A stretch of DNA of 64,000 nucleotides from NCBI GenBank assembly GCA_012295275.1, contig CM022676.1, forward strand, positions 7,936,001-8,000,000, read 5' to 3'. Under the pieces are notes generated by a model. That model searched no databases. It had not been told where the DNA came from and saw nothing but the letters and a program-made list of their open reading frames with translations. Both the position numbers and the translations under genes were made by a program. This DNA comes from Chrysomallon squamiferum. Its lineage: Eukaryota > Animalia > Mollusca. Positions 21,400-55,011 of the stretch are shown here, one piece after another. Positions within the stretch are counted from its first letter, which is position 1. Each line of letters begins with the position of its first letter.

Positions 21400-21449
<50 letters not shown>

Positions 21450-22277: not shown

Positions 22278-22342
<65 letters not shown>

Positions 22343-25292
22343 GCAGGAGAAAAAAAGGTAAAAAGGTCGAACGCTGAAAGGTAAATTAATTAATAAATCT
22401 CTATTAATGTCTTTTCTATCTGTAAAATAATTAATATGTTTATGTACGTCTACGTATATATATATATATATGTATGTTGTGCGTGTATGTATTTGTGTAT
22501 GTACGTATGTGTGTATGTTCACGTCTATATATGTAACATGCATATATTCATGTAATATATGTGTGTATGAGTGTATGGTGTATATATAGGTATGTATGTT
22601 TGCATTCTTGTGTACGTCCTCGGATTATTGCATCAATGTATATCTATTACTTATATTTGAATAAATAAATGTTTTGTGTCTGTATAAAGTTTCAGAATCG
22701 GCACAAATGAAGGTGTTTCCTACAGTGTTGTTCCGGATTCATGTAAGTTCACACGCACACATACACAAACACACACACACATACATACACACATACACAC
22801 ACATATACACACACATAAACACATAGACACACACAGAGATATATACAGCGATGATTACCTCGTTAACCAGTGTCTTTCCGAATATTGTCTGTGTGCAGAG
22901 TCTAATCAGACGTGCATAAGACAGAAAATATTCAAATCCTAAAATACACAAACATACATAAGTAAATGCATACATATACATACATATATGTTCACCTATT
23001 ACATACAAACACTCATACATCGATGTATCTATGAAAACACATTATTATGTGTATATGCATAGAGCGAGAGATGAGTTACATGTAAAAATATACACTTAAA
23101 AATTCACTTAAATTGTTATACATTTGTGTGTGCGAGCGCTTTCGTGTATTTGTGCACACATACACACACACACACACACACAAGCACACATCCATATATA
23201 TTAATGCGATTATTTTTATCTCTGCACAATCTTTATATAAACGAAAACATAACGTGATTCCACGTTTCAGATAATGAGACCGTGCCAGCAGCTGAACATG
23301 AAGATACAGAGAATCCATATTCTACTATACAGGAAAGACGAAATGACGTCCCAGAAAACGTTATAACGCCTGACAGTAAGTGAACTGATATTAATGAACG
23401 GAAAACAAGAAAAGGATTATTATTTCTTAATCATACACTTCATAAGGCACTTTCACAAAAAATTAAACAAGGTTAATAAAATGTCAGGCTATATTTAGTA
23501 GAAAAGAAAGCAAAACTGAATATCCTATCCGAACTAACCTGTGATTCCAAAAATGTTGTGTATTTTCTAATATGCAATTTATGTAAAACTTATAATAATA
23601 ATAATAATAATAATAAAAATGTGTTGGCCAAACTCAAAATACGTTACGCGTTAGGACTGTTTGTCACAAATACGATAATGTGGATGAAGTTGACATTCTT
23701 GTCGCCATAAGTTTTGACCTACCTGGCCATATACTGGACGATCATTTTGAAATATTCCTAATAGAGCAAACTGATATTCTCAGTCCAGAAACTGAAACTG
23801 ACCTTTTCAGACTGGAATGAGAAGGGTTTTGCATTCATACATTACTAATACAAAAACCATTCGGAATAAATGTTGCATCGAGATAAAATTATTGACACTG
23901 GTAAAAATTGCGAAGGAACAAGATTTTATCTTACGGACTACTATGAAACATCCAGTAACAGCGAATTATTTCAACAAAAGCTACGGAAATGTTTGAAAAT
24001 GTTTTCAAAAGAATTTTATGGAATTTTATGGAATTTTGTATTATTTATATATTTATATTTATTTATTTATTTTATTTATTTATTTGTTTTCCGGACATTT
24101 TACATTTTTTTTACAGATTTTGAGAAACGTAACGTGTATTTTTCGACAAGGGTATTTTGTTGAATGTTACAATATTATATATTTTAGAGAGTTTTGAGAA
24201 AGGATACTTTTTAAAGTTTCTGAAATAGTTTTAAATCGATCTGATATATATTATTTTGTTCTAGAAATGTATTTTTATACATCTCTGAACGCTTTTGTAT
24301 AAAGTTTTGAAACGTTTTATGTATGTAATTAAATGTTTTTAACATATGACAGCAAAATAATAAATATATAGCCAAATAATCAAATCATATTGTAATATAC
24401 ATTGCAGTGGTCAACTTTAAGTCAACTCGAATATCTAGAGATAAATAAAATACATACATGCTTATATACGCACACATACGTACATGCATGCATACATACA
24501 TATATGTACGTTTACTACATACTTATATATGCATGTGTGTGTGTGTGTGTAAAACTTGGATAAATAGTCCTAATTTGGTTAACTGATTTATTATCTGTGT
24601 GATTGTGAAACAGCAGGCAGATATTGCACCTCAGAACACATTAATACAGTGAATTCGTGGTTACGTTGATAGGACCAGTTTATAAACAAAATTATGATTT
24701 AATAACACTTGATTTTTATATTCTATCCTAACCAGCTTAGATGTAAGTTTTCTGTATGTAATTTCTTTATACGCTAAACATCAGTGGTTTCCTATTCTGA
24801 GGCAAGATATTTTTAAGATTAAATCGAAATGAGAAACAGTGCTAATAATACAATTTAAAGTAATGCCATAGGATATAATATGGTACTATACAACATAATA
24901 TAATATTATACGATATCGCAACATGGCAACATGGCTGATTGTCAAGTTTATTTTTTACGTTATGACGTCACTAATCAGTTTTACTCTGGTATGTTGTAAC
25001 TCTACCACTCTGTTTAAAACCAGCCATGAATGTAAGAAGACGCACAAACAAACTGACTTTTTAACTTATATGTCTGTGTGCGCATGTGTGTATTTATTTA
25101 TACATACACACACACATACACACATTATTGCGATTATTGTTTAGCTCCATACATGACAACTTTTATATAAACTAAAATATAATTTCATTCCATGTTTCAG
25201 ACTATGAGTCAGCGAGACCAACTCTACATCAAGATACAGAGACTGTATATTATCATGTATATGTTGAAAGCGCTCCTTCTACAGGAAATTAG
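16673..25292 (+). CDS. g2: Ig-superfamily type I receptor with ITIM+ITSM tail (multi-exon gene span)
   Basis: L 16673-16730, A1 17308-17619, A2 18825-19136, B 19748-20008, C 20236-20547, D 20963-21220, TM 21842-21958, tail exons 22347-22380, 22696-22742, 23271-23375, 25201-25292; all GT/AG and phase-compatible, no stops. Confidence 0.82.
17308..17619 (+). CDS. g2 exon A1, V-like Ig
   Basis: 312 nt open; FTFTCKRDFPAPNITWFVNN..GTVWRCGDYRPRSNEIKLEVR. Confidence 0.87.
18224..18282 (+). pseudogene. Duplicated leader exon with disrupted start (ATG to ATTG)
   Basis: gaaattgagttgtaag versus gaaatgagttgtaag in intact copies. Confidence 0.7.
18825..19136 (+). CDS. g2 exon A2, V-like Ig (tandem duplicate of A1)
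   Basis: 312 nt open; FTFTCHSDFPSPNITWFVNN. Confidence 0.87.
19748..20008 (+). CDS. g2 exon B, C2-like Ig
   Basis: 261 nt; SCSATCFITCNYQW..SGPYVCTAEN. Confidence 0.88.
20236..20547 (+). CDS. g2 exon C, V-like Ig
   Basis: 312 nt; FTLTCQIYQYSERVTW..QGNVWRCED. Confidence 0.88.
20963..21220 (+). CDS. g2 exon D, C2-like Ig
   Basis: 258 nt; DGPGSLRINPSSDITVEEGSDVTVSCKADCFIKCLYKW..NGVYTCTAVNP; absent from the ORF track. Confidence 0.86.
21842..21958 (+). CDS. g2 transmembrane exon
   Basis: AVEDCSQFGKGFVSGFGTFFVLSVIIIIVVVCYVRCKR. Confidence 0.85.
22347..22380 (+). CDS. g2 juxtamembrane micro-exon (34 nt, phase 1 to 2)
   Basis: REKKVKRSNAE; homologous micro-exons at 36210 and 52171, and a same-length, same-phase one at 57429(-). 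Confidence 0.65.
22696..22742 (+). CDS. g2 tail exon with ITIM (VSYSVV)
   Basis: 47 nt, phase 2 to 1; IGTNEGVSYSVVPDS. Confidence 0.7.
23271..23375 (+). CDS. g2 105-nt tyrosine-module exon (single YxxI)
   Basis: YNETVPAAEHEDTENPYSTIQERRNDVPENVITPD. Confidence 0.75.
25201..25292 (+). CDS. g2 terminal exon with ITSM (TVYYHV)
   Basis: NYESARPTLHQDTETVYYHVYVESAPSTGN*. Confidence 0.7.
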
Positions 25293-29370: not shown

Positions 29371-29414
<44 letters not shown>

Positions 29415-29968: not shown

Positions 29969-30113
29969 GTATGTATTTTATATTTATATTATTAATCTCT
30001 ATCTGAAGTGACCTCATGTAGTAAATGTGAAATCAGAGAGAAGTCGCCATTACGTATGGATGACGGCTATGATCCGGAATGTAGAAAATTTGCATAAATA
30101 GTCCTAATTTCAT

Positions 30114-30297: not shown

Positions 30298-31109
30298 GGG
30301 ATCACTTCATAACTAAAATTATGATTTAATAACACTTAATTTCTTACTGGCAATTAATTTATATATTTGTTTCCTAACCAGCTTAGATGTAGGCTTTCTC
30401 TATATAATTTCTCTATATACTAGATAGCAGAAGTTTCTTTTTCTTTTTTTAATTTTTGACGCGAAACATTATATGGGTTAAACGCAAATGAAAAGCAGTT
30501 ATGATTATGTAAAGTAATCTAATATAATATAATATGGTACAATATGATATTATAAGACGCAATGTAGTGTAACATAATTCGGTGTTAAGTAATGTATTTC
30601 ACTGTAAAATAATATCGGAGAGTGATTATTAAATTATCAACTATATATAAAATGAATTACAGTGTATCATTATAACCTAGGCACCATGGATGTTTGTCAA
30701 GTTTTGTATCTTAAATTGACTGATCAGTTTCACTCTGGTGTGCTGTAACTAACTCTACACTCTAATCAAATCAAGCCATGCATGCGAGAAGACGCACAAA
30801 AACATGTAACCCAGAATACCTTATACGCCTTCTGCCAATTTACTGTATCTTTTTCGGTTTTGTTCAGTTTAAACGGGAGTGACTGTGTGTGTCAGTGTGT
30901 GTGTTTGTCAGTGTGTGTGTGTGTGTGTGTATGTGTGTTTATAAATATATATATCTGTCCGTAATAGATCTAAGTCGGTAAAGTCCGTGTGTGTAAACAC
31001 CTATATCATATACAATTACATAAATATGTTACAGGGTTTTGGGGGGTTTCTTTTGTTTTCTTAATCATCATGATCATTATCATCAATATCATCATCATCA
31101 TCATCATCA

Positions 31110-31176
<67 letters not shown>

Positions 31177-31682
31177 TATTATTATACGTCGAACAAACAA
31201 CACTCATTCAATAGTTTACAGTTTATTAAGAAAAAATCATCTCTTAATTTTCTCTTTCTCTCTCAGATTTGTTTTTGCTGAGTAGTGTTAATCATTTATT
31301 CATTCATCTGTCTTTCTTTTTATCAGTGTGTTGATCTGTGAATTAACACATTCTTCCACCCATCAGTCTATCCTCGAAATGCATGCGCACTTACATAGAT
31401 TTAAAATACTAGCACACTTGATAAAAATAACTACCTCTGCCGCCATATTGATTTTGTTAATTGCTAATATTTGTAAAACAAGAAGTAAATTTTCCTATTC
31501 TGAAGTGAAAACATTTCGTGAATATTCGAATACAAAGAAGTAACGCATAATACAAACGTAGTGCTGACGAGAATTTTTATATTTAGATGCTTAGTAGAAA
31601 CCAAAACAAGGAAGAAATTAAAACGAAAGTAGCTTAAAAGGTATAATTTTTATTAACGACAGTTAAAACTAAAATACTGAAA

Positions 31683-31740
31683 ATGAGTTGTAAGTTGTTC
31701 TGTGTGTTCGTCTTGCTGGGATGTGTATTGTACGTACACG
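31683..31740 (+). CDS. g3 proximal signal-peptide exon
   Basis: MSCKLFCVFVLLGCVLYVHG|gtatgt. Confidence 0.78.
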
Positions 31741-32584
31741 GTATGTATTTTATATTTATATTATTTATCTCTATGTGAAGTGATCTCATTTAGGAAATGT
31801 GAAATAAGAGAGAGGTCGCCATTACGTATGGATGACGGTTATTATCCGGAATGTAGAAAGTTTTCATAAATAGTCCTAATTTCGTGATTACGTTTATAAC
31901 GCAGTACACCTTAATCCAGACAATTCAGGATTACGTTGATAAGACAGATCACATTAATACCGTGAATTCATGATTATAATGATGGGATCACTTCATAAAT
32001 AAAATTGTGATTTAATAACACTTCATTTCTTACTGGGAATTAATTTATATATTTGTTTCCTAACCAGCTTAGATGTAGGCTTTCTCTATATAATTTCTCT
32101 GTATACTAGACAGCAGAAGTTTCTTTTTCTTTATTTAATTTTTGACGCAAAACGTTACATAGGTTAAACGCAAATGAAAAGCAATTATGATTATATAAAG
32201 TAATTTAATACAATATAATATAATATGATACAATATGATATTATATGACGTAATGTAGTGTAATATAAATCAGTGTTAAGTAATGTATCTCACTGTAAAA
32301 TAATATCTGACAGTGATTATTAAATTATCAACTATATATAAAATGAATTACAGTGTATCATTATAACCTAGGCACTAAGCATGTTTGTCAAGTTTTGTAT
32401 CTTAAATTGTGACGTGACTGATCAGTTTCACTCTGTTATGTTGTAACTCTACACTCTAATCAAATCCAGCCATGCATCCGAGAGGACGCACAAAATATGT
32501 AACCCAGCATATCTTATATGCCTTCTGCCAATTTACTGTATTTTGTTCTGTTGTGTTCGGTTTAAACGGGAGTGCTTGTTTGTG

Positions 32585-32667
<83 letters not shown>

Positions 32668-34582
32668 GTATATATCTGTACGTAATAGGTCTAAGTCGGT
32701 AAAGTCCGTGTGTGTATACACCTATATAATATATAATTACATAAATATGTTACAAAAAGATAAAAACACAAAAGTGTTAATTTAATTTGTTTATTTATTT
32801 TATTTATTTTCATTTATTTTTTTACTATTTTATTTTATTTTATTTCTAATTTAAGGTCAGCATTATAAATTAAAAACATCAGGAAGATATGCAATTGTTG
32901 GATCACCTTTTACTTTTACCTGTCAAGGAAATGGTTCTCCTATAATTACCTGGTTTGCGAATAATACAGAATACAGGATGAAAGTACAGGGAAAATACGG
33001 TCACTGTGAATTGTTTGGTGAACATCCAAAAGAATACAACTTTTTTTGTTCCGATGTTTTAAATATCCTGATAATAAAATATGTCAAACTCAGTCAACAA
33101 GGAACTGTGTGGAGATGTGGAGATGATGGAGGACACAGCAATGAAATAAAACTTGAAGTGAGAGGTAAAATTAACTTAATTATTATTAATATTATTATTG
33201 TACCTATTACATGTTGTCAAAAAAAAAGCAACGAAATAAAACTGAAAGTGAGAATAAAAATATGTACTCTTAATGATAACAGCGATAAATTTAATAAAAC
33301 AAAACAGTTCTGGAAGTCAGACGTATTATTAGTTTATGTTTATAATTATCTTTCTAGGAAATATGTACTTTTAATTAGAATTAAAATCTCAGTAAAATGA
33401 AACAATGCTGTAACTCAATTGTTTTTTCTGTGTTATGTCTATAATTATCATTTTAAGAAATATGTACTGTTGCTGATAAGTAAACAATACATATCAATAA
33501 AAGACAATAATACGTCAAAAACCTTTATTTTTATAGATTATAATTACAGGTGATAAGACTTATTAGTGTATTTTAACTTTTAAGTCAGTTTATATTTTTA
33601 CATGAAAAGGTGTCCAGCCTAATTATATGCTTAAACAGATACGTACGTAAAAAATAACTTACGTATATGAAGATATATTTTTGAAATAATACATGTGTTC
33701 ATATTTATATATAGAATATTTTAAATTTAAGCTTGAAGTGAGAGGTAAAATTAACTTAATTATTATTAATATTATTGTTGTACCTATTAAATGTTGTTTC
33801 AAAAAAGCAATGAAATAAATCTGAAAGTGAGAGGTAAAATTAAGTTATTTATTATTAATATTATTATTGTACCTATTAAATGTTGTTTAAGTAAGTAATG
33901 AAAATAGGCTTTAAGTGAAACTGAAAGTGAGAAGTAAAAATATGTACTGTTAGTGATAACTAAGCGATAAACTGAATAAATCAAGATAGTACTGGAAGTC
34001 AGACGTGTTATCTGTTTTATGTTTATAATTATTTTTCTAGGAAATATGTACTTTTAATAAAAATTAAAATCTCAGTCAAACAAAACCATACTGTAGCTCA
34101 GTTGTTTTATCAGATGTATGTCAATAATTTTCATTTTAGGAGATAAGTACTGTTAATGGTAATTAAACAATATACTCAATAAAATAAAACAATACTTGAA
34201 ATCAGAGATCAAAAATCTTTATTGTTTATAAATTATAATTTCTAATATATTTTAACATTAAAGTAAGTATATATTCTTACATGAAAATATGTCCAGCATA
34301 ATTATACGCTTAAACAGATACGTACGTATACACTAACTAACTTATCTGCAGATATATTTTTTAAATTAATTTAGTAGTAGTAGTAGTATCACAACTATCA
34401 ACATTATCTTCATAATAACAAAAATAATAAGAAGAAATAGAAGAAGGAGAAGAAGAAAAAGAGGAAGAATAATGACAACAACAACAGTATCAGCAGCGAT
34501 AAGAATAATAATGATGGCTATGATGAGGAGAATCATGTTGATAATTACAAAAATTTACTTTTTAGCTTTTATTTATTTATTT

Positions 34583-34627
<45 letters not shown>

Positions 34628-35030
34628 TTATTTGTTATTATTATTTTTTTTATTTTTTTATTTATTTGTTTATTTATTTATTTGTTTGTTTGTTTTTTTT
34701 TTTATTTATTTTTTTTTTTTTTATCTATCACAGACGGTCCCGGTAGCTCACTTCGAGTCAATTCTTCATCTGACATCACTGTGGAGGAAGGAAATGACGT
34801 CACAATATCATGCGAAGCTGACTGTTTTATCAAATGCCTTTACAGATGGGAACTGACCAGTCAGACTCTCAGTAACAACGGACTACTAGCACTGACTAAT
34901 ATCACGAGACGTCAAGATGGCGTCTACACATGCATTGCTGTTAATCCGGATACAAACCAAACAGCACATAAACAAATTATTATTAATGTTGAGAGTAAGT
35001 TTTAATTCGTTTTATTTCGCATCTAATGAC

Positions 35031-35126
<96 letters not shown>

Positions 35127-36174
35127 ATGTGTGTCTATATATTGTATATATGTGTGTATGTATGTATGTATACATGTATGTGTATGTATCTATGTATGAA
35201 TATATACACACACACACACATTCTCTCTTACATAATTATATATTTACAAATATTTAGATAGTGAGTTTGTGCTTGGATGAAAGGATGGACGCATCTGTGG
35301 ATAGACTGACGTAATGAATGAAAGAAAAATCAGACAGAGAAACTGATGGACACAGACAGAGTTACGGATAAATAGAGAATTATAGAAAAGAAAAGAGATG
35401 TGTAAAATCAGAATGGTTGATGTAGAAAGTGTGAAATAAATAAATAAACAAACAATAATTAACTGAAAGATACCTTAACTAAGGAAATAAAAAAAACTAG
35501 CTACTCTCTGATGATATATTAATAATAGCAAATACAAATTACCTGCCTATTTAATGTTTATAAATAATATATTAATTTAATCTCACGTATTTATTTTTAT
35601 TAATGAATTTTCAGGCGCTGTTAAAGTCAGCAGTCATCTTGGAACAGGAATTGGCATCGGTTTTGGAACTTGCTTTGCTCTGTTCGTTATTATCATTGTC
35701 GTTGTTCTCTTCTTCCGATACACAAAAAGTATTTATTTGTTTATTTATTTATTTGTTTGTTTGTTTGTTTAATTTTATTGTCTATTCTTTATTTATTTGT
35801 TTGTTTGTTTGTTTAATTTTATTGTCTATTCTTTATTTATTTGTTTGTTTGTTTGTTTAATTGTATTGTCTATTCTTTATTTATTTATTCATTCATCATT
35901 TTGTTCGTTCGCTCATTTATTCATTCATTCATGCCATTGTTTCTTTATTGTTTGTATGTTTATTTGTTTCATTTTTATTTTATTGTTTTGATTTTATATT
36001 CTTTCTTTATGTATTCTTTCATCCATTTGCTCGTGCGTTTATTATTTCCTTCATTTTTTTTTGTTTCTTTATTAGTATGTACATTTGCTGATATGTTTTA
36101 GTATTTGAATTACACTTTCCTATAATGCCACCTGATAATGATATGGCTGACATAAATTAAAAAAATATATATTA

Positions 36175-36207
<33 letters not shown>

Positions 36208-36600
36208 AGGAGAAATAATGGCTACTTCGAACCAGGAAAGGTAAATTGATTAATATATTTCTATTACTGATCTTTCTATCTGTAAAGTATATTCATGTGT
36301 CTATGTATATATCTATGTATGTATGTGTATGTATTTCTGTATGTACGTATGTGTGTGTATGTACATGTCTACGTATATAATATGTATGTGTGTATATAAT
36401 ATATGTATGTATGAGGAGTGTAAGATATGTGTATAGGTATGTGTGTTTGCATTCCTTTGTTTTCCTCGGATTATTACATCAATGTCTGTGTAATACATAT
36501 TGTTTAACTTTTATAAAAATATATTTTTGTGTGTGTGTCAAATTTCAGAATCAGCACAAATGAACATGATTGGTACAGTGTTGTTTCGGATTCTGGTAAG

Positions 36601-36660
<60 letters not shown>

Positions 36661-37576
36661 TAGACACATCCACACACTCTTACACAATGCACAGCGATGT
36701 TTACCTCGTGTGTCAGTGTCTTTCCGAATGTTGTCTATGTGCAGATTCTTATCAGAGAATATAAGTCAGAGAATATTCAAATCCTAAAATACTCAAAAAT
36801 ACATAAATAAATGCATATTCATACACATACTTACTATGTGTACCTATGTACATACACACATCGATGTATCTCTAAAAACACATCCTTATGTGTATATGCA
36901 TAGAGTGAGAGATGAGTTATATGTAAAAACATACACTTAAACATTCACTTTTTAAATTGTTATACATTTGAGTTTTTGTGCTCGCACTCGTGTATTTGTA
37001 TATGTGGTTTATTTTATATATATATATATATTGTTTATATATTGTTTTATATATATTGTTCTGTTGTAGAAATGTATATTTTATAAATCTGTGAACGCTT
37101 CTATATAATGTTTATAATATATATATATGTACTCACACACACATACACGTATTAATGCGATTATTGTTATCTATGCACGATCATTATATAAATGAAAACA
37201 TAATTACATTCCATTTTCAGATAAGGAGACTGCACCAGCAGCTGAACATGAAGATACAGAGAATCCATATTCTTCTATAGAGAAAAGACTAAATGACGCC
37301 CGAGAAACCGTCATAACGCCTGATAGTAAGTGAATTGATATTAATGAATGGTAAAGAAGAAAACAAATATTGTTTCTTAATCATAGGCCTCGTCAGACAC
37401 TTTGACAAAAAAAGAAACAAGGTTAATGAAATATAAAGCTAAATTCTGTAGACAACAAACTAAAACTGAATATCAAATCCGAACTAGCCTGTATACATAC
37501 ATACATACATACACATCGAAACAGCTATAGAAACACATTCTTACGTCTGTGTTTATGTATGTATGTGTGTGTGTTT

Positions 37577-37657
<81 letters not shown>

Positions 37658-37971
37658 CAGATATGTATATAAATAGATAGGTATATATACAGATAGAGAT
37701 AATATATATATATATACACTTAATCATACTGACTTTTTAAGTTATATGTGTGTATGCGCGAGTGTGTATTTATTTATATATACACACGCATACACATACA
37801 TTATTGCGATTATTGTTTACCTCCATACATGACAACTTTTATATAAACTAAAACATAATTTCATTTCATGTTTCAGACAATCAGACAGAGAGGCCAACTT
37901 TATATCAAGATACGGAGAATCCTTATTATCCAGTATACATCCAACGCGCTCCTGCTACAAGAAATAAGTGA
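31683..37971 (+). CDS. g3: 2-Ig-domain (A+D) type I receptor (multi-exon gene span)
   Basis: L 31683-31740, A 32856-33164, D 34734-34994, TM 35615-35728, tail exons 36210-36240, 36549-36595, 37221-37325, 37877-37971; open and in phase. Confidence 0.82.
32856..33164 (+). CDS. g3 exon A, V-like Ig
   Basis: 309 nt; FTFTCQGNGSPIITWFANN..GTVWRCGDDGGHSNEIKLEVR. Confidence 0.87.
34734..34994 (+). CDS. g3 exon D, C2-like Ig
   Basis: 261 nt; SCEADCFIKCLYRW..QDGVYTCIAVNP. Confidence 0.87.
35615..35728 (+). CDS. g3 transmembrane exon
   Basis: AVKVSSHLGTGIGIGFGTCFALFVIIIVVVLFFRYTK. Confidence 0.83.
36210..36240 (+). CDS. g3 micro-exon
   Basis: 31 nt; REIMATSNQE. Confidence 0.65.
36549..36595 (+). CDS. 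g3 47-nt tail exon
   Basis: ISTNEHDWYSVVSDS (ITIM -2 position is D, non-canonical). Confidence 0.68.
37221..37325 (+). CDS. g3 105-nt tyrosine-module exon
   Basis: DKETAPAAEHEDTENPYSSIEKRLNDARETVITPD. Confidence 0.75.
37877..37971 (+). CDS. g3 terminal exon (NPxY)
   Basis: NNQTERPTLYQDTENPYYPVYIQRAPATRNK*. Confidence 0.7.
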
Positions 37972-40045
37972 ATGATAAAGAAGAAAACAAGTTTATTTGT
38001 AAATCATACTCTTCTTAAGACACATTCCTAAAAAATTAAAAAAGGTTAAATTGTTAAAAGTGACTTTATTAAAATATAAGGACTATATATATTCAGTTTC
38101 TACACTGACACCAAATTTGAACTGTGTAAATAGCTGCCTGTGAAGAAAGTTATAAACATTTCAATGAGTTCCAAATCGCGAATTTCTATCATTCATTACC
38201 ATTGTGTTAACTGTGACCGTAACTAAGTTGAAATTTCGTCAGATTTATCACATAAAATTGACGTATTTACAAACTGACACATTACAAAAAAATAAACAAA
38301 TTTTGGTCAATCGCAGTAATATCTTCCCGCGATGATGTCCAAGAAATGAAATTTTGTTCATATTCGCACTTTTTTTTAGTTTTTTTATTTCTTTCTTTCT
38401 CTGACGTAGGATAATGACCTCAAGAAAGTGTCTCTTTTCTTGCATGACAAAAGAAATGAAGTTCATGTCTGATAATGGAAAAATAAATCTAGATTTACAG
38501 ATATTTATACTAACAAGAACATTTACTCTAGATCTTCTAACCCATATCTAACAAGGTTTCATTGTTTCGTTATACTTTTGAGTTTTTCATATATTTATAA
38601 TAAGTTTAGATTCAATAAGGCATAATTCAATATGACGATTTTATGATGATTTTGTAAAAGCTGAGGAGTGTCCCTCCATATTAGGTTGTTTGGTTTTTTT
38701 TGTATTGAAATAAACGGGTTCGACTTCATTTAACATGTACAAATGCATACTATAACAATAACACTACATTACAAAATAATATTTATTGCGAAAACAATTG
38801 AAGAAATGATATCTGACAATGTAATAAAAGATTTCAATGAAACTGATCTAATCACATATATCTGAACACTTTTGCAAGTCTGAATATGGATGCATTACTA
38901 AAATATTATATTCAATAAATTAGTAAAATTACCTCCTTTGTCATGAAAAGTTATTAGTGATTTGTTTTTTCTTTTTCTCAGCATTCGAAATTTCGAGAAA
39001 TGTACAGCAGATTGTTCATATGACATATTATCCAAACCTAAAAGTTATTCAGAAAGAGGAATCATTAAAAAATAATAAAAATAAATAAAAATAAAAATAA
39101 AAAATAGAAAAGATTTCCATGTTGTTGTTTTCTTTCCTTTTACATACTAAATGAGTTTTCCAATTTTATGTTATACTTTAATGCTTCTCTTCGTACTCAA
39201 AAAATAAAGTTTTTGATTTTTATCTTCCAAGTCTGTTCATCTGTTTGTGTGTATTTTAATTTTAATTTTTTTAATTCACACTTTCTCCATCGATTTTTCT
39301 ACTTCAACCATTGTTTTCTTTTTAGACACCTCTCTTTTTTATTCTATAATTGTCTATTTATGTTACTCTGTCTATGTCCATCTGTTTCTCTATCTGATTT
39401 TTCTTTCATTCTTTACATCACTGTACCCATCCATCCATTCATTCCTCTATCCGTCTATCCACAAATTCATTGTCTAGATATCTGTAAATATATAATTATG
39501 TATGTAAGAACACACACGTGTGTGTGTGTGTGTATATATATATATAGAGAGAGAGAGACACACATATACATACATGTATACATTCATATAGTTATATATA
39601 CAAATATACACACTAACACATCGCTTCACACGTCATTCGTCTGAACCTGGATGACCTTACTGAATGTTTTCTACATGCAGACTCTAATCAGACGTACGTA
39701 AGAAAAAAGGTTTCTCGTTAATCGGGGGTAATTTTATATTCTACCACGAAGCACACCGTTCTTTGTCTTTTGTAGTGTTTGCGTGCATCTATTGTTTCGT
39801 GTTAACCCTTTGGCCCATTGAAAACACGAAACACGCCGTTCTTTGTCCTTTTTAATTTTACGTTGATCTACTGTTTTGTGTCAAAACCCATACATAGCAT
39901 ATATATAAAAACCTATACATAGCATGGCTGTAACTACATTCAGACAAATGAGGCAAATGCCTCATCATGAAATTGAGAATTTGTTGGGGGTTTTAACATC
40001 TAATACGTATTGTAATAATATTAATAATAAATAAGTTATTTTCAC

Positions 40046-40864
40046 CTTTCACTTCAGTTTTTATTTCATTGTTGTTTGGCCTGTAAAGTCCACATCTGTT
40101 CCAAGTTGACTGAGGTTGACAGATCTTATTGTGAGAATGATTAGTTTACATGAACAGTTAAAAAATGTATTCTTTGGATGTTCATTACGAAAATATCATT
40201 GACAAACCATGCAATAATAGAAGAAAGAAAGACAGAACGATTTCCTTCACAAGTAAAACTAAAAGGTGATCCAATAACTGCATATCTGAATGATGTTGTT
40301 AATACTGTGTATAAATTAAAAAAATAAAATTAAATTAAATTAAATTAAATAAAATTATAATAAAATAAAATTAATATAAATTAAATTAAATCAAATTATT
40401 TGTTTATAATTACCTTGTTGCTAAATTATGTTATGCTTATTATTAGTAGTAGTAGTAGCTGTAGTAGTAGTAGTAGTAGTGGTAGTAGTAGTAGTTTCAT
40501 AATTATTATTACTTTCTTAAGATTTGTTATATAATATTACATTGCATTATATTATGTTGCATGAATTTGTGTTACAGACTGTCATATTATGCTATGTTTT
40601 GTTATTGTCTCACTTTTAATACAAATATATATAAAAAGTTCGAATCACACAATTATGCATTTCAGTTTACACTAGCCAGTAATGCGTAGCAGAGATTCAC
40701 CGGGTTATAATCGTCATCCATATATAACGTATAATCCACCCAGATCTCACAGTTACTGAGATTAACTCAGATACTGATAAATAATGTGATAATATAAAAT
40801 ACATACCTTGTACGTACAATACACATCCCAGTAACACGAACACACAGAACAACTTACAACTCAT
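40046..40864 (-). pseudogene. Inverted leader plus A-exon pseudogene fragment
   Basis: Intact leader 40807-40864 (MSCKLFCVFVLLGCVLYVQG); A exon ~40046-40304 with internal deletion, frameshift and TAA. Confidence 0.78.
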
Positions 40865-43759: not shown

Positions 43760-44074
43760 GTTGGTATTATAATTTAACAACATCAGTCAGATATGCAGCT
43801 GTTGGATCATCTTTGACTTTTATCTGTCGAGGAGATGTGCATCAAAGGCTAGAATTGATCTGGTTTGTGAATAACACAAAGTATATGGTGGGTGTACATA
43901 GAGCTCACCGTCAGTGCAACTTTTCACGGCAACATCTAAAAGAATACACGTCTTACTGTTCATTTCATATAAACATGCTCACAATAAAATCTGTTAGCCT
44001 CAGTCATCATGGAACAGTTTGGAGATGTGGTACGTCTGCGAAAGAAAGCAATGAAATAAAACTGCAAGTGAGAG
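43760..44074 (+). CDS. g4 exon A, V-like Ig (open frame)
   Basis: 315 nt; LTFICRGDVHQRLELIWFVNN..GTVWRCGTSAKESNEIKLQVR. Confidence 0.7.
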
Positions 44075-44654
44075 GTACTATCAGTTTTATTAATATTCTA
44101 GGAAATATGTACTGTTAATGATAACTAAACAATAAACTCAATAAAACATCACAATATTGTACCTCAGTGTAAAATATCTTTAGAGGTTATAATTAGAACT
44201 GATAAGAATTATTAATATATTTTAAGTAAGTTTTAATTTCTTTCATGAAAGAATAACCAGCATAATTATATGCTTAAACAGATACGTACACATACACTAA
44301 TTTAGATACATGAAACCGTATATGTGTGTATATATCCACTACCTAGAACATTTTTTCTCGGTGTACAATATTTTTGTTTTTATTTATTGTTTTATTATTA
44401 TTTCATTTTGAATCAGCAAATATATTAACGAAATAAATAAATAAATAAAAATAATTTAAAACAAATAATAGTTTCACTAATTGTAATTATGATATCAGCA
44501 GCAACAACTCAAAAACTTGACCGTCATCACCACTACAACGACAACATCCATAACTAACAGTATGAGCAGCACCCCAATTCTAATATCAATAAAAATAAAA
44601 ATGTGACGACAATGATGATGATGCTGATAACGTTTTATTTATTTACTTATTATA

Positions 44655-44702
<48 letters not shown>

Positions 44703-44731
44703 TCTTTTCTTTTTTCTTCTTTTTTTCCCAG

Positions 44732-44992
44732 ATGGTCCTGGAACATCAGTCAAGCTGAACACTTCGTCTGTTGTGACTGCTCTGGAAGGAAATGACGTCA
44801 CAGTGTCTTGTTCGGCGACGTGTTTCATCAAGTGTAATTATCAGTGGAAGCTCGCACATGACGTCATAAGTAACACGAGCATTCTCTCATTGACTGATAT
44901 TAATACATCACAATCAGGTTTCTACGTGTGTACGGCTGAAAATCCGGATACGAAACAAACTGCCAGAAAAACACTTCATTTGACTGTACATC
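44732..44992 (+). CDS. g4 exon B, C2-like Ig (open frame)
   Basis: 261 nt; SCSATCFIKCNYQW..SGFYVCTAEN. Confidence 0.7.
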
Positions 44993-46828
44993 GTAAGTAA
45001 GAAACTAATTATAGTAAAAATAAAAACGATAAAATAAACAGACAACTTAATATTAGTTACAGGTGTGTGTTTACATTTATAATTGCTTACGTGAAAATAT
45101 AAGATCAAGGTCTGAGTGAATCTGTTATGCTACAGATTACATTATAAGTTTATTTATGTATATGAATATCTGTTTATCTGCTTGGGTGCATGTGACTATG
45201 ACGGCGTTCGCGCGCTTTTTTGTTTACTGTTTGTAGTTTATTTTCAGGTCCGCCAAATCTTCGAGGGTCCGCGCCATACGCTATCAGCGGTCTTACTTTT
45301 ACGTTCACATGTCAGATTTTCCAATATTCACATCGCGTCACGTGGTTTGAAAATGGCGTCAGCTATGACGTGTTAAATTCCGGACAATGTGATGTTATGT
45401 CACGTTTTAGTGGAAACTACACTTTCAAATGTTTCAATAAGAAACTTCAAGTTACTATAAAATCTGTCAACAAATCAACAAGGAAACATTTGGCGATGTG
45501 AAAGTGATCGTTACCAGTATTCGAGTAAAACAGTCGTCTTAAAAGTTAGAGGTATTTTAATTTAATTTAGTTCTATTTAATTCATTATTATTAGTGTTAT
45601 TATTATTATCAACATCATTATCATCACCGTAAAAATAATAATAATAACAGTAACAACAATAACAGATTTAACAGTTATAACAGTTGCTGCTGATGATAAT
45701 GATTATCAGGACCATGTCGATAATAATAAAAATAAATACCATTCATGTACTTATATTTTTAGCTTTTATATATTTGCGGGTGTGTGTGTATGTGTGTATA
45801 TATATATAAACATTATCATTGTCATAATCATTATCAGCATTATTACTGTTATAACTGTTCAATCTGTTATTGTTGTTATTGTTATATATATATATTATTT
45901 TTTTTTTTTACAGACGGTCCCGACAGCTCACTTCGAGTCAATTCTTGCCTTTTCAGATGCGAACTGACCAATCAGATTGTCAGTAACAACGGACTACTGT
46001 CACTAAGGAATATCACGAGGTTTCAAGATGGCGTCTACATATGCACTGCTGTTAATCCGGATACGAACCTAACAGCACATAAACAAATTATTATTAAAGT
46101 TGAGAGTAAGCTTTTAAATTAATAGTAATTTGATTTGTCAATTTCTGTGTCATTAGATGTGTTTATGCGTATGATTAATTGTGTATATCTATGTACGTGT
46201 TTAGGATTGTATGTTATTGCTTTTTCTTTCTGTCTGTGTGTGTGTGCGTGTGTTTGTATAAATGCATGCGTATGCATCTAGGTATGTTTATACATACGTT
46301 CTTGCATACATAATTATATATTTACAGATATCTAGACATTAACTTTGTAGACGGATGGATGGATGTATTGATACAGTGATGTAAAGAATGAAAGAAAAAT
46401 CAGATAGAGAAACAGATGAACATAGAATTATAGAAAAGAAAAGAGGAGTGTGTAAAATCAGGATGGTTGAAGTACAAAAAAAAAGAGTGAAATAAATAAA
46501 TGTACACGAACAATACTTTAACTGAAACATACCTAAACAATACCAAATAGATAATTACCTAATCTCTGAAGATATATTAATAATACTAAATAGAAATTAA
46601 CTACCATTTGAAGAAATACAAATAATATATATAATTTAATGTTATTTTTGTTAATGTATTTTCAGGCGCTGTAGAAAGCAATCAGTTTGTAAAAGGATTT
46701 GCCAGCTGTTTAGGAATTTTCTTTGTTCTGCCTGTTACCATTTTCTTTGTTCTCTACTTACGATACAAAAGAAGTACGTGATTGATATGTACTAAATGAG
46801 ATTACCTGAGATACATATAAATACATAC

Positions 46829-46890: not shown

Positions 46891-48768
46891 TTCCAGTATT
46901 TTAGATTTCACAGTTAGTGTAACTAATGTGTCACAACTCCCTATAAATCTCACTGTATCCGTCCTTCAGACAACTTTTGTTTTCAATATCTAGAATGGAG
47001 GTCAAGTTTAAAAAGATAAATTATCAGAAAACAATCCACGAATTCCACGGTCAGATTTCAATCTCTTATTTACAATAGTGTTTTACAGTAACGATTAAAC
47101 ATATGTTATGTTTCTTTGTGTGTGTGTGTGTGAGTCTGAGAGAAAGAGAGAGACAGACAGACAGACAGACAGAGTGTGTACACATGAATGAATATATGTA
47201 TATACGTGTGTCTATGTATGTGTTTATATATATGAATAAATGTACATATATATGTCTTTGTATAAGATTGTATGACACACTTTTCTCTTCTTTTTTTTTT
47301 GATTGTTTGTACGTATGCATGTATGCATCTATGTATATTTGTATGTCGGTATGTATATTTATATATGTACGCAGGTACATGCACACATACGTTCTTACAT
47401 ACATAAATATATATTTACAGATATCTAGGCAGTGGGTTGGTAGATGGATGGATGGATGGACGGGTGGATTGATACACTGATGTAAAGAATGAAAAACAAA
47501 ATCAGACAGTGATATATAATCAACAGCTATATATAAAATGTTAGATTTAACACTTATTAATTATGAAGTTTTAGAGAAAATTGATTATAATGTATCATTA
47601 TAATTCAAATACAGGATTTAGCACTTATTAATTCACAAGCAGACATAAAATGAATTATGATGGTCAAAGTGTATCATTAGAAATCAAATATTAAATTTAA
47701 CACTTTAACATCAGGTAGTACACAGACGGTGACAAACAGATAAAGGGTGGCCATTTTGAATTGTGCATAGCCTAAGCAACATGGATGTTTTCTTATTTTA
47801 TGACATGACTTGTGCAGTTTTACTGTGCTATGTTGTAACTCTACACTCTATTCAAAACCAGCCATGGATGGAAGAAGACGTACAAAAAAATGTAACCCAA
47901 AACACCTAATACTCTTTCAGTCATGTTGTTGGGGTTTTTCCATTGTGTTCAGTTTATACGGGAATATATGTGTGTGTGTGTGTGTGTGTGTGTCCGTCTG
48001 GGGGTTGTATATGTGTGTATATGTACGTAACAGATGTAAGTCGGTTAAGTCCGTGTTTGTATACACCTATAGCATATATATTTATATAAATACGTTACAG
48101 GGTTGTTTTTTTTGTTTTTGTTTGGGGGGTTGGGGTTTTTAATCATCATAATCATTATTATTTTTATTATTATTATTATTGTTGTTGCTCTTGTTGTTCT
48201 TATTATTATTATACGTGAAACAAACAACACTGATTTAAAAGTTTACAGTTAATTAGGAAAAATCATCTCATAATTTTCTCTTTGTCTCTCAGATTTGCTT
48301 TATGCTGGAGTATTAAACTAGCAGCAAATTTCCTACTTTAAGCATATCGTGAAAACACGTCGTTAAAATTCGAGTACAGACAAGGATGTGAAACCAGGGT
48401 TCAAACGACGTAGTCGTACAGTTGAACTTTACAGGTAACGCGAGTTTCTTTATTTAGATACTTAGGCTCCAATAGGCCTGTCCGTTGTAGTCTTTATGTA
48501 ACATTATATTATTTTACAGTGAAGTAGATTACTTAAAATTGAATTACCTTACACTACATCATATCGTATCATAGTGTATTACATTATATTATAATGTATA
48601 GTAGTATATTATACTGTATAACGTTACTTTAATTTATGTTAAGAATAAAACGAATGTTTTACTTGTGAAACAAAAAGTAAACATGCTAACATTGGAAAAG
48701 AAAAGAAAACAAGGAAGAATTTAGAACAAGAAAGTAACTAAGAAAACATGGAAACTAAAATAATGGAA

Positions 48769-48826
48769 ATGAGTTGCAAGTTATTCTGTGTGTTCGTGTT
48801 ACTGGGATGTGTATTGTATGTACAAG
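48769..48826 (+). CDS. g5 signal-peptide exon
   Basis: MSCKLFCVFVLLGCVLYVQG|gtatgt. Confidence 0.8.
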
Positions 48827-48988
48827 GTATGTATTTTATATTCAGATTATGTATCTCTATCTGAGTTAATCTCGCTGAGGAACTGAATTCTTGGTGGTGT
48901 GGACATTGTGCTTGTATGATTAATGAAAGATGAAGCATATGATTGTGTCACTTGAACTCTTGAAATATATCTAATAAAATATGAAACA

Positions 48989-49059
<71 letters not shown>

Positions 49060-49744
49060 CATTATTATTATTATTATTATTATTTTAAATTTAAGGTTAT
49101 CATTATATATTAACAACATCACACAGTTATGCAGTTGTTGGATCACCTTTTACTTTTACCTGTCGAGGAGGTCATTCTAATGTAACTGTCTGGTTTGTGA
49201 ATAACACAGAATACTGGGTACATCTACTAGGAAGTAAAGGTGAATGTGATACTTTTCGTAAACCTCCAAAAGAATACATTTTTAACTGTTCAGCTGACAC
49301 AAATATCCTCACAATAAAATCTGTCGATTTCAATCAACATGAAACTGTATGGAGATGTGGTGATGAGGGAGGTCGCAGCAATGAAATAAAACTGGAAGTG
49401 AGAGGTAAAATTAACTTATTTATTTATTAATATTATTATTACTGTACCTATTAAATGTTGCTAAAAAATAAAATAAAATAAAAATAACAATAAATAAAAG
49501 CAACGATTTAAAAGTGAGAGGTAAAATCAGTTTTATTATTATCATTCTAGGAGATACATTTGTTAACGATGACAAAACAATATACACAATGAAACAAAAC
49601 AATACTTTAACTCCGAGATCAAATATCTCTGTGGATTATACAGTTTAAGTACCCTTATATTTTTACATGAAAGAATATCCAGCATCATTTTGAGCTTAAA
49701 CACATACTTATGCATGCATTAATTTAGCAAAAATATTAACAAAA

Positions 49745-49796
<52 letters not shown>

Positions 49797-52131
49797 GCGA
49801 GCAACCCCACAGTTTGTACTAATAGTAAGAACAAAACAAAAATTATGATGACAATGATGATGATGATGGCGATGACACTGAAGATTATGACGTTTTCTTA
49901 CTGTTTACAGTTTACTTTCAGGTCCGCCAAATCTTCGAGGGTCCGCGCCATACGCTATCAGCGGTCTTACTTTTACGTTGACATGTCGGATTTTCGAATA
50001 TTCAGATCGCGTCATATGGTTTGAGAATGACGTCACCTATGACGTGTTAAATTCTGGACCCGGACAGTGTGGGGTTACGTCACGTTTTAGTGTAAATTAC
50101 ACTTTCAAATGTTTCCGTAACAAGTTTCTAGTTACTATAAAAGCTGTCAACAGAAACCAACAAGGAAACATTTGGCGATGCGAAAGTGATCGTTACCAGA
50201 ATTCGAGTAACACAGTCGTGTTGAAAGTTAGAGGTATTTTAATTCAATGCAATTTATTATCATCATCATCATCATCATCATCAATATCGTCATATGATCA
50301 TCTTCATTATAGTAAAAATAATAATAGTAACGATGACGACAACACCACGAAGAGCTATAGCAGTAATAATGATGACGATGACTATGATAATGATCATTAT
50401 GATGAAGAGGACAACAAAAACAAACAAATATCATTGATACCTTTAATTTTTTCGTGTTTCTTTATTTCTCTCTTTCTTTCTCTACTTATTTATTTTATTT
50501 ATTTATTCATTTGTTTATTTATTTAATTTTTTTTATTATTATTATTATTTTTCACTGATGGTCCCGGTAATTCACTTCGAGTCAATTCTTCATCTGACAT
50601 CACTGTAGAGGAAGGAAGTGACGTGACAGTATCATGTAAAGCCGACTGTTTTATCAAATGCTGTTACAGATGGGAACTGACCAATCAGACTGTCAGTAAC
50701 AACAGTCTACTGGCACTGACGAATATCAAGAGATTTCAAGATGGCGTCTACACATGCACTGCTGTTAATCCGGATACGAATCAAAGAGCAGATACGAAAA
50801 TTATTATTAATGTTAAGCGTGAGTTTTAATTCATTTTATTTTGTTTTTAATTTTAAATTTATTCAAATTTTTTTTCATAATAGGAAAATAGTAGATGTGT
50901 TTAGTTACGTGCGTTTTGTGGAACGTACGTTATTGTTTGCTCTGTCTGTACGTATGTGTATGCATGTATGAATATATCTATGTATGTATACTGTATTTAT
51001 ATGTGTATGTGTATACGCATGCATATACAGTGGTACCTCGACTTAGAGTTTTTCGAGTTACGAGCAGCAGCACGGTTAGTTTGATCCCAACAAATAAATG
51101 AGAAACCCTAACCCAGAACACTTTCCAAAACCAATTCATTTCTTTACATTCTCTTTTATTTTGTTTTTATACAGTATTTGTCATTTATATATACATTTTT
51201 CTTATTTGTAAACACGTTACAAAATATTAGGCTGGTTTCGGGGGGGGGCTGGAACGGATTAACGGAATGGATAAACGGTATTTCAATTAATTTCATTTGA
51301 TAAAATTGATTTGATAAACGAGCAAAATGAGTTACGAGCTTGGTCACGGAATGAATTAAACTCGAAGATATATTAATAATAACAAATACAAATTACCTGT
51401 ATTTCTGAAGATATGTAAATAATGTATTGATTTAATCTCACGTATTTGCTTTTATTAATGAATTTTCAGGTGCTGTAGAAGACAGCAGTCAGTTTGGAAA
51501 CGGATTTGGCAGCGGTTTTGGAATTTTCTTTGTTCTGTCTGTGATCATTATCATTGTCGTTGTTATCTACTTCCGATATAAAAAAAGTATTTATTTGTTT
51601 ATTTATTTATTTGTTTGTTTGTTTGTTCGTTTGCTTCTCGGCTTGTATGCTTGTTTGTTGTTGTTTTTATTCTATTCTTTATTTATTCCTTGATCCATTT
51701 GTTCGTTTGTTCATTTATTCACTATTTTCTTGCTATTGTTTCTTTATATGTTTGTTTGTTAGTTTATTTATTTTTATCATGTGTTTAAACCTGTTTTTGC
51801 GGCCACCAGTTAATGAAATGTCTGAGGTAAAAAGAAAAAAAAAAGAAAAAAAAATGATGTCTAAGCACAAGAAGATTTAATGATAAACTTAATTTTAGAC
51901 ATGCATCACATTAAAAAATGTTTCATGATCGGTACCACTGCCAGATTATGATGTCAGTAATTAGATAGCATGATCTGAAGAGATAGGTGTGAAACTGAAC
52001 ATTATATCTTTTAGCACTGGTAGAATTACTAATACAACCATCACGAACAACACCATCGTCACTACTAATAGTATTACTACATTTATGATGATCCTGATGA
52101 TACTGTCATTATAATAATATTCTTCTTGTTG

Positions 52132-52168
<37 letters not shown>

Positions 52169-53292
52169 AGGGAAAAAAAAGCCAACTTCGAAACAACAAA
52201 GGTAAATTAATTTATATATTTTATTACTTTTCTTTCTCCTGTAAAATATATTTATGTTTAAGTTTATGTGTCTGTCTCTGTCTATGTGTGTGTGTGTTTG
52301 TACTTGTATACGTGTGTGTATGTATATATATATATGTATGTATGTATATATGTATAGGTATGTATGTGTGTATGTAGATGTGTACTTATGTAATATGTGT
52401 ATCTAATATACACATATGTTTGTAATATATGTATGTATGAATCTATGGTATGTATATAGGTATCTGTGTTTGCAATTCTTCGTTGGTGCTCGGATTATTG
52501 CATCAGTGTATATGTAAGATATTTTGTTTACTTTTGAAATTTCAGAATCAGCACAAATCAACCTGTGTACAATAGTGTTGCTCCGGTTGCTGGTAAGTTC
52601 ACACACACACACAAACACACACACACACTTAATATTTATGAGCATGTGTGTAATATGTGTGTATGTTTGTATATAAGAAAGTATGCATTTATACTCACAC
52701 ACATACATATTAATGCTTATTGTAATCTTCGCAAACAACTATTTTTATATAAACCAAAACATAATTTCATTCCATGTCTCAGATAATCAGACTGCGCCAG
52801 AGGTTGTACATCACGATACAAGGAATCCATATTCTTCTCTAGAGGAAAGACGAAATGAGGTCCCTTATGACGCATTAATGTTTGATGGTAAGTAAATTGA
52901 TATTAATCAATGATAAAGAAGAAAAACAAGTATTGTTTTTTAATCACACACTTCGCACTTTCATGAAAAATTAAACAAGGTTAATAAAATCTCAGGCTAA
53001 ATTCAGTAGACTGTGATTCTAAAAATGTTGTGTGCATCGTATGCAAATAAATATTTAAAATAATAATTTAAAAAAAATAACATTATGTTTCTTTTTTACC
53101 CAGACTTTGAGAAAGCATTCTTCAAAATAGTTTTCGAAATAGTTTTAAATCGATTTTGTATGTATGTATGTATATAAATACATGTATACACGCATAAATG
53201 TACGTATATATACAGTGTATGCGTGTGTCTGTGTGTGTTTGTATATATATATAGATAGATAGATAGATAGATATATTGATAGATAGACAGAT

Positions 53293-53343
<51 letters not shown>

Positions 53344-53832
53344 CGTCTATATGTCTGTATCTCTGTATAGATATGTATCTATATAGAGAAAGATAATGTG
53401 TATGTGTGCATTTACATATACACGCATTATTGCGACTATTGTTTTATCCGCACATCACAACTTTTATATAAAATAAAACATAATTTTGTTCCTTGTTTCA
53501 GATGATCAGACTGCGCCAGCAGCTGAACATCAAGACACAGGGAATCCATATTCTTCTCTAGAGGATAGAGGATATGAGTTCGCATATGCCGTATTATTGC
53601 CTGACAGTAAGTGAACTGATATTAATAAATCATAAAGAGGAAAACGAGCATTTTCTGTTAACAAACACTTATTCAGACACTTTCATGATAGTAAGTCAGC
53701 TGATACTAATTAATGATAGAAAAGAAAACGAGTTAGACACTTTCACGAAAGACAAGGTTGTCCTACTGTTATAACGTACAAGAAACTAAAACTAAATAGT
53801 TGTGAGAACGTCCACCATAATACCCCATAATA

Positions 53833-53906
<74 letters not shown>

Positions 53907-54404
53907 CGGATGAAGGATTATCAATATACCTATATATATATATATATAGGTATATTGATAATCCTTCATCCGAAATACTTTTGAATACTTTTGGGATTTA
54001 ATGACATAGCCTAAGGATAGAAATACAGTTTAAACATTAATTCCAGGATTTTGTATTTAGAATTTTATAAATATATGTACATATATACAGTTTGTCGCAC
54101 TACTGACTACTAAATATATGTGTGTATGTATGTATGCGTGTGTATATATATGTGCACACATACACGCATACTCACACATCGATGTATCTATAGAAACACT
54201 TTTCACGTGTGTGTATGTGTATATATTTCATTCCATGTTTCAGATAATCAGACTGCGCCAGAGGCTGTACATCAGGAGAGAAGGAATCCATATTCTTCTC
54301 TAGAAGAAAGAGGATATGAAGTCCCTTATGACGTCTTACAAAGTTTGATAGTAAATGAAGTGAGAGGAGTAAATGATAAAGAAGAAAACAAATTTATTTG
54401 TTAA
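48769..54404 (+). CDS. g5: Ig-superfamily type I receptor with three ITAMs (multi-exon gene span)
   Basis: L 48769-48826, A 49096-49404, C 49922-50233, (D 50558-50818, TG acceptor), TM 51470-51586, tail exons 52171-52201, 52546-52592, 52783-52887, 53502-53606, 54244-54404; open and in phase. Confidence 0.82.
49096..49404 (+). CDS. g5 exon A, V-like Ig
   Basis: 309 nt; FTFTCRGGHSNVTVWFVNN..ETVWRCGDEGGRSNEIKLEVR. Confidence 0.87.
49922..50233 (+). CDS. g5 exon C, V-like Ig
   Basis: 312 nt; FTLTCRIFEYSDRVIWFEN..QGNIWRCES. Confidence 0.87.
50558..50818 (+). CDS. g5 exon D, C2-like Ig, acceptor AG mutated to TG
   Basis: 261 nt open, but preceded by ttcactg rather than cacag. Confidence 0.55.
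51028..51366. mobile_element. Truncated pogo/Tigger-like non-autonomous DNA element in a g5 intron
   Basis: TA|CAGTGGTACCTCGACTT.. terminus, internal gagttacgagc repeats; absent from the paralogous introns; right TIR not seen. Confidence 0.45.
51470..51586 (+). CDS. g5 transmembrane exon
   Basis: AVEDSSQFGNGFGSGFGIFFVLSVIIIIVVVIYFRYKK. Confidence 0.85.
52171..52201 (+). CDS. g5 micro-exon
   Basis: 31 nt; RKKKPTSKQQ. Confidence 0.65.
52546..52592 (+). CDS. g5 47-nt tail exon
   Basis: ISTNQPVYNSVAPVA. Confidence 0.68.
52783..52887 (+). CDS. g5 ITAM exon 1
   Basis: DNQTAPEVVHHDTRNPYSSLEERRNEVPYDALMFD. Confidence 0.8.
53502..53606 (+). CDS. g5 ITAM exon 2
   Basis: DDQTAPAAEHQDTGNPYSSLEDRGYEFAYAVLLPD. 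Confidence 0.8.
53902..53977. repeat. 76-bp perfect palindrome
   Basis: tatttcggatgaaggattatcaatatacc-(ta)9-ggtatattgataatccttcatccgaaata. Confidence 0.95.
54244..54404 (+). CDS. g5 ITAM exon 3 (probable terminal exon)
   Basis: NNQTAPEAVHQERRNPYSSLEERGYEVPYDVLQSLIVNEVRGVNDKEENKFIC*. Confidence 0.75.
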
Positions 54405-55011
54405 TCATAAACTTCGAAGGCACTGTCATAAAAACGTTAAATAAGGTTAAATTGTTAAATGATTTTACAAAAATGTAAATACATTTTTTTTTCTACAGTT
54501 AATGAGTTGTTAATCGCGAATTTCTATCATTTATTACCATTGTGTGAATTGTGACTGTAACTGTTAAACTTTGTCACCGAAGTTAACGTCCTTACATAAA
54601 AACACAAAAATATTAATATACGTACATACATACATTCATACATACATATATACAGAAAGAGAGACATACATACACACATATATACAGACTAAACTACTTA
54701 CCTGCATACCTATCTACATACATGCAAACACAGAAATACACATAGATATAATAACGTAAAATACATACGTATATAAAGACAAACATGCATAATAAATAAA
54801 TAAGTAAATAATCGTACTGAGACAAATTAACTATAAAAAATACAACGCTGTATGTCATGTCTCTGAGCTGAATACAGGTTGCTCGGATTCAGTCGACTGC
54901 ATCTAATGTATTGAAAAATATATTCAACCACCCAGAGAATAGTTTGTGAAATGCATGAAGGCCTTGAAAATTATATTTATATCGACTGCAGTGAAAACTA
55001 AAATACTGGAA

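Follow-up and report, generated by a model that had tools for sequence, protein, structure and literature searches.

What kind of receptor is encoded by a snail gene whose predicted tail repeats the same paired-tyrosine motif three times, and how did the repeats arise? The question is raised by g4, an immunoglobulin (Ig) receptor gene in a 64,000-nucleotide stretch of Chrysomallon squamiferum DNA, the whole of which was analysed and is called the window here. The initial annotation had described the g4 tail as three tandem exons, each encoding a canonical ITAM, in the manner of CD3-zeta. ITAM multiplicity has mostly been studied in the vertebrate T-cell receptor. The explanation favoured here, which the sequence makes moderately probable, is that the single ITAM exon of the family was tripled in g4, and that the product is likely an activating receptor with predicted Syk/Shark-type signalling stronger than that of its relatives.

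The gene cluster and the predicted structure of g4

The window is animal DNA, microsatellite-rich and with a GC content of 29.5%; the genome means given in PMC7736800 for C. squamiferum (34.5%) and Gigantopelta aegis (37.5%) are both higher. It contains a tandem cluster of related Ig-receptor genes, comprising g1, g2, g3, a broken copy, g4 and a minus-strand paralog (Table 1). From its sequence, g1 likely has a truncated tail or is a pseudogene: two small tail exons are absent and the cassette is reduced to its 3' half (about 9340-9397). In g2, the unit of leader and V1 is doubled (16652-19136), with a dS of 0.03 and a dN of 0.07 between the V1 copies and a frameshift in the second leader. Ahead of g3, approximately 1.7 kb is present in three tandem copies (28170-32574), each containing a signal-peptide exon (28244, 29890, 31662), and these repeats are best read as duplicated promoter/leader units.

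The broken paralog (43760-46773) has a frameshift in V2 and a deletion in the I-type exon, and no tail exons were found for it. The minus-strand paralog (61857-57395) contains a leader, a V domain, two I-type domains, a helix and a short tail exon, and no ITAM cassette was found in it. High turnover of the cluster is indicated by orphan signal-peptide exons at 40807 and 46829 (minus strand) and at 54991 and 55405 (plus strand), and by a partial V2 exon containing a stop (12373-12634). In addition, positions 1-2035 and 38153-40273 are inverted copies of each other, about 99% identical and ending at a 200-N gap (2036-2235), which represent an assembly artefact or a very recent inverted duplication. 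A DDE transposase remnant lies on the minus strand at 14323-14970 (Pfam DDE_3, E 0.0016, below the curated cut-off).

Table 1. Genes and predicted exons, by position in the window
Feature	Position	Strand	Remarks
g1	about 3925-10511		tandem cluster member
g2	16652-25300		tandem cluster member
g2 single cassette	23271..23375	+	homologous to g4 cassettes; second Tyr absent
g3	31662-37970		tandem cluster member
g3 single cassette	37221..37325	+	homologous to g4 cassettes; second Tyr absent
g4 (gene carrying three ITAM cassettes)	48748-54404	+	tandem cluster member
Signal-peptide exon	48748..48826	+	first ATG 48748; ATG common to paralogs at 48769; hydrophobic leader read from sequence
V-like Ig domain 1 exon, phase 1/1	49096..49404	+	predicted model pLDDT 91.8
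V-like Ig domain 2 exon, phase 1/1	49922..50233	+	homologous to domain 1
I/C2-type Ig domain exon	50558..50818	+	Pfam Ig_3 E 1.6e-07
Transmembrane exon	51470..51586	+	helix without charged residue; aligns with G. aegis helix region
Tail exon 1 (31 nt, basic, phase 1 to 2)	52171..52201	+	homologues in g2 and g3
Tail exon 2 (47 nt, phase 2 to 1), single YxxV	52546..52592	+	homologues in g2 and g3
ITAM cassette exon 1 (105 nt, phase 1/1)	52783..52887	+	motif 52830-52877; second half also fits ITIM
ITAM cassette exon 2 (105 nt, phase 1/1)	53502..53606	+	motif 53549-53596; extra Tyr in spacer
ITAM cassette exon 3, read as terminal exon, to stop at 54404	54244..54404	+	motif 54291-54338; extra Tyr in spacer; second half also fits ITIM
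Likely 3' UTR	54405..54796	+	homologous to DNA behind g1, g2 and g3 terminal exons; AATAAA at 54791

When ten exons of g4 are joined at AG/GT sites (one acceptor excepted), an open frame of 508 aa results. In this predicted splice model, the frame runs from a signal peptide through two V-like domains, one I-type domain and an uncharged transmembrane helix to the tail. The length and phase that the initial annotation gave for the first two cassettes were borne out, and both are flanked by AG and GTAAGT. Phase 1/1 is also that of all the Ig exons of g4. No additional cassette or terminal exon was found behind 54404.

The predicted model of domain 1 has as its best solved matches the TCR V-beta and antibody V domains, with a TM-score of about 0.7, and its look-alikes in the Atlas are mostly molluscan. 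As modelled, domain 1 has an IgSF V-type fold; by sequence, it was left unmatched by Pfam V-set. Searches by sequence with domain 2 alone and with cassette 3 returned no matches, a blank that is weak evidence. Mean dN/dS, over sets that include broken genes, is 1.13 for V1 (15 pairs), 0.91 for V2 (3) and 0.65 and 0.68 for the I-type domains (6 and 3). The V1 value, near 1, is compatible with ligand-driven change or with relaxed selection. As the helix has no charged residue, the chain likely signals through its own tail.

The excepted acceptor is that of the third Ig exon, where 50556-57 reads TG and the paralogs have AG, a feature that the initial annotation had passed over; the first in-frame AG lies 24 nt inside the exon and has a low splice score. 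Decay of g4 is therefore possible. Here, g4 would be decaying or recently broken, and the extra cassettes would be neutral products of unequal crossing-over in a cluster prone to duplication, with no selection acting on them. The surroundings fit this account: neither g1 nor the copy at 43760-46773 is intact, and duplicated or orphan signal-peptide exons are scattered over the window. However, the frame is kept open across all ten exons, and either skipping the third Ig exon or using the AG 24 nt inside it leaves the tail in frame. The TG may also be an allele or a base-call error. Decay is considered unlikely on balance.

Splice sites of the cassettes were scored with a small matrix derived from sites in the window itself (20 acceptors, 25 donors) and biased by paralogous sites. 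On this matrix, the cassette acceptors score -0.9, 3.7 and -0.1, versus 3.1-17.6 for the 20 training acceptors, and the donors of cassettes 1 and 2 score 9.7 and 7.4, inside the training range. The weak acceptor scores of all three cassettes could mean that the cassettes are used alternatively, either as mutually exclusive exons or as alternative 3' ends, so that each protein would have one motif and the partner would be diversified instead of the signal being multiplied. The phase 1/1 symmetry points the same way, as does the extra spacer Tyr that is present in cassettes 2 and 3 and absent from cassette 1. Against this, the introns between the cassettes are long enough (614 and 637 nt) for ordinary inclusion, and g2 and g3 keep a cassette followed in series by a cassette-derived terminal exon with the same type of acceptor. 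Alternative use is judged very improbable, and the favoured model has the three cassettes in one tail. Skipping of individual cassettes, which the initial annotation proposed as a way to tune ITAM number, is compatible with the phase and hypothetical.

The tyrosine motifs and their molluscan relatives

The three motifs, each of the form YSSL-x8-YxxL, lie on the plus strand where they had been placed (Table 1). All of them fit the ITAM core YxxL/I-x6-9-YxxL/I, with a spacer of 8; this core, and the ITIM consensus [I/L/V/S]xYxx[I/V/L], are taken from work on Hydractinia (bioRxiv 10.1101/2022.03.04.482883). The term "canonical" is too strong. The classical ITAM consensus has D/E/N three residues before the first Tyr (PMC4536121), and that residue in the three cassettes is R, G and R. 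An upstream acidic residue had been claimed as well and does exist, but at -5 and not at -3. In shuffles of a one-cassette tail, the core YxxL/I-x6-8-YxxL/I appeared in 0.043% of 100,000; when the full tail was shuffled, one core appeared in 0.69% and two or more in none. A Pfam search with any of the cassettes matched no family at E up to 1, and the cassette 3 exon had 0 matches among PDB sequences at E up to 10, a weak result with so short a query. The annotation was right that the g2 and g3 cassettes lack the second Tyr: Glu stands in its place, and the first half (YSxI) is kept.

Relatives were sought with a profile built on ten V-like domains that the window encodes. At E up to 0.01 it matched 5 proteins, headed by two from G. 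aegis (E 2.5e-64 and 4.1e-46), and in a larger library it matched 122 representatives at E up to 0.001. Among 20 of these representatives, the names are molluscan in 16, fish in 1 and missing in 3. A helix and tail were called in 45 of 125 proteins scanned, where at least four of the calls are plainly wrong (the "tail" being ectodomain); YxxL/I-x6-12-YxxL/I occurs in 8 of these 45 and two motifs occur in none. Single motifs with spacers of 6-12 also recur in proteins of Mya, Tegillarca, Mactra and Haliotis that are more distantly related. Distant molluscan relatives bearing a single paired-Tyr motif are P0030, P0040, P0053, P0069 and P0112. The V/I Ig receptor family may thus be a group of ITAM receptors that is widely spread among molluscs and has been little described.

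The closest likeness is to the "CEACAM1-like" receptors of G. aegis (XP_041346676.1, XP_041372832.1, XP_041373955.1/956.1), which share with g4 the V-like and I-type domains (about 50% identity), a similar helix and a homologous YSSL-x8/9-YxxL motif. Three G. aegis helix proteins have one such motif each, and the gene models, which are automatic, put it after the transmembrane helix; such models support splicing to the helix exon without amounting to proof. The tail of XP_041346676.1 aligned to cassette 1 with a score that 0 of 5000 shuffles equalled; for cassette 3, p was 0.0016, and for cassette 2 alone the match was not above chance (p 0.116). The G. aegis receptors differ from g4 in having a single motif and a terminal YExV, an end that g4, with its three motifs, lacks. 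These likenesses place g4 within the Gigantopelta-type V/I Ig receptor family. The name "CEACAM" was attached automatically to the G. aegis proteins and is not a test of orthology; the best profile matches are molluscan. CEACAM5 is listed among the expanded immune families of G. aegis (PMC7895826), and the expanded "CEACAM-like" genes of vent snails become candidate tyrosine-motif immune receptors.

The second halves of cassettes 1 and 3, VPYDAL and VPYDVL, do fit the ITIM consensus, as had been noted. The tail may on this ground be inhibitory or dual, with these halves recruiting SHP2/SHIP-type phosphatases or with partial phosphorylation switching the sign of the signal, and Alr tails of Hydractinia are reported to be ambiguous between ITAM and ITIM in the same way (bioRxiv 10.1101/2022.03.25.485889). 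However, the ITIM-type residue at -2 is absent from cassette 2 and is found in only 1 of the 3 G. aegis tails. By contrast, all six cassettes from g4 and G. aegis retain the two Tyr-x-x-Leu halves at a spacing of 8-9. An inhibitory or dual tail is judged to be distinctly improbable. The fit to the ITAM core, together with the tail motif conserved in the G. aegis gene models, favours a putative activating tyrosine-motif receptor.

History of the cassettes and selection on them

The proposal that the tail was built by exon duplication held up, as the cassettes and the intron DNA flanking them align across g1-g4. Since the G. aegis relatives bear a homologous single motif, the two-Tyr motif is reconstructed as ancestral and conserved, with a spacer that drifts. 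In this reconstruction, g2 and g3 lost the second Tyr and g4 tripled the motif. The reverse course, in which g4 gained the second Tyr, was rejected as G. aegis has that residue. In g1-g3, the terminal exon is itself an older copy of the cassette exon, and each of the 8 cassette-type exons aligned retains the acceptor AG.

Within g4, cassettes 1 and 3 are sisters (support 91/93); the grouping of all three g4 cassettes has support of only 62/62. Cassette 3 looks like a composite, in which a cassette is joined to the terminal exon of the family. From 54244 to 54365, 20 of 23 diagnostic columns are of the internal type and 0 are terminal, and beyond 54365 the columns are split, 2 internal versus 2 terminal. 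The former donor site (54350/51) lies 2 nt out of place and is weaker. The terminal-exon reading of cassette 3 rests on BLAST scores: DNA from 54366 onwards has its best matches behind the g3 and g2 terminal exons (82 and 71 bits) versus 64 bits for the best internal copy, and the matches of 54440-54620 are to regions of the terminal type, a single weak 25-nt match excepted. These patterns would be explained by two steps: a duplication that yielded cassette 2 and the common precursor of cassettes 1 and 3, and the later substitution of a cassette 1-type copy for the 5' part of the terminal exon, giving cassette 3. Such a replacement would support cassette 3 as the last exon of g4.

The initial annotation had drawn attention to Tyr and Leu positions that are invariant while the spacers diverge. 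That is true of the three copies, which are 83-89% identical in DNA and invariant at 16 of 31 residues, but is weak evidence when taken by itself. All four Tyr/Leu positions were kept in all three copies in 12% of neutral simulation runs, so invariance within the gene does not show selection; the probability that the motifs are all kept with no stop was 0.07. Selection inferred from the three copies was thus rejected (hypergeometric 0.06, simulated 0.12). The dN/dS values between g4 cassettes, of 1.51, 0.75 and 0.50, give no sign of purifying selection. Neutral decay draws support from such ratios of about 1 and from neutral survival of 0.07-0.12. Across two species, the six cassettes (three from g4 and three from G. 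aegis) agree fully at 7 of the 34 columns without gaps (P, Y, S, S, L, Y, L), and the motif itself makes up 6 of these 7; the hypergeometric probability of 0.0008 is rough since the rows are related.

Proposed signalling and known receptors

With the favoured explanation, and with the g4 exons spliced as modelled, the fast-changing V domains would bind variable ligands. Binding would cluster the receptor, a Src-family kinase would phosphorylate the Tyr pairs, and up to three tandem-SH2 kinases of the Syk/Shark type could dock on each chain, setting off a response of the haemocyte, for example phagocytosis. This mechanism draws on established ITAM biology and on the oyster route from Ig receptor through ITAM and Syk to ERK. 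A bolder version has the cluster tuning its signal by whole-exon ITAM count, from half a motif (g2 and g3) through one (G. aegis) to three (g4), with cassettes 1 and 2 skippable to give 1-3 ITAMs; this is doubtful. One exon per motif is a simple route for changing ITAM number. With half, one and three motifs set on similar ectodomains, these close paralogs would also offer a natural series in which to relate ITAM number to signal strength in an invertebrate.

Drosophila Draper is an ITAM receptor. ITAM-driven phagocytosis in Drosophila is mentioned in the Hydractinia work (bioRxiv 10.1101/2022.03.04.482883). In the oyster, CgIgR has one ITAM and is reported to bind oyster Syk and to drive ERK phosphorylation and phagocytosis (PMC6994640). 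Like g4, it is a molluscan Ig receptor with its own cytoplasmic ITAM (predicted in g4). It has five Ig domains and a single ITAM, and its likeness to g4 is drawn from its description. The Alr proteins of Hydractinia are cnidarian, with an Fn3-like domain and overlapping motifs, and no whole-exon ITAM triplication appeared in text passages of the Alr papers (bioRxiv 10.1101/2022.03.04.482883, 2022.03.25.485889). By analogy, g4 would work like CgIgR and the ITAM-bearing Alr proteins.

Single-ITAM Ig receptors are, from these sources, already known in oyster and Hydractinia, and passages of a 2025 review name one molluscan ITAM receptor (PMC11999971). Surprise is therefore limited, as the motif class and a molluscan Syk pathway were known before. 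No report of a three-ITAM Ig receptor in invertebrates was found in literature that mostly lay outside subscription journals, and multi-motif tails may be in print.

The comparison with CD3-zeta (CD247), made in the initial annotation, stands for the count of three ITAMs in one tail and fails for the build. An ITAM gained by an added exon, as proposed for g4, is described for Xenopus laevis FcR-gamma (PMC4536121). In adaptors of the CD3-zeta type, the helix has an acidic residue and each ITAM is split over two exons (PMC4536121), which sets g4 outside that family. In g4, each ITAM is whole in one exon, the helix is uncharged and the chain carries its own ligand-binding domains. We infer that g4 and CD3-zeta are convergent and not homologous. 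In the doubtful case that the cluster tunes its signal by ITAM count, the multi-ITAM amplifier known from the T-cell receptor would have been invented independently, on a ligand-binding chain with fast-evolving V domains, among snails whose nearest sequenced relative harbours bacterial endosymbionts.
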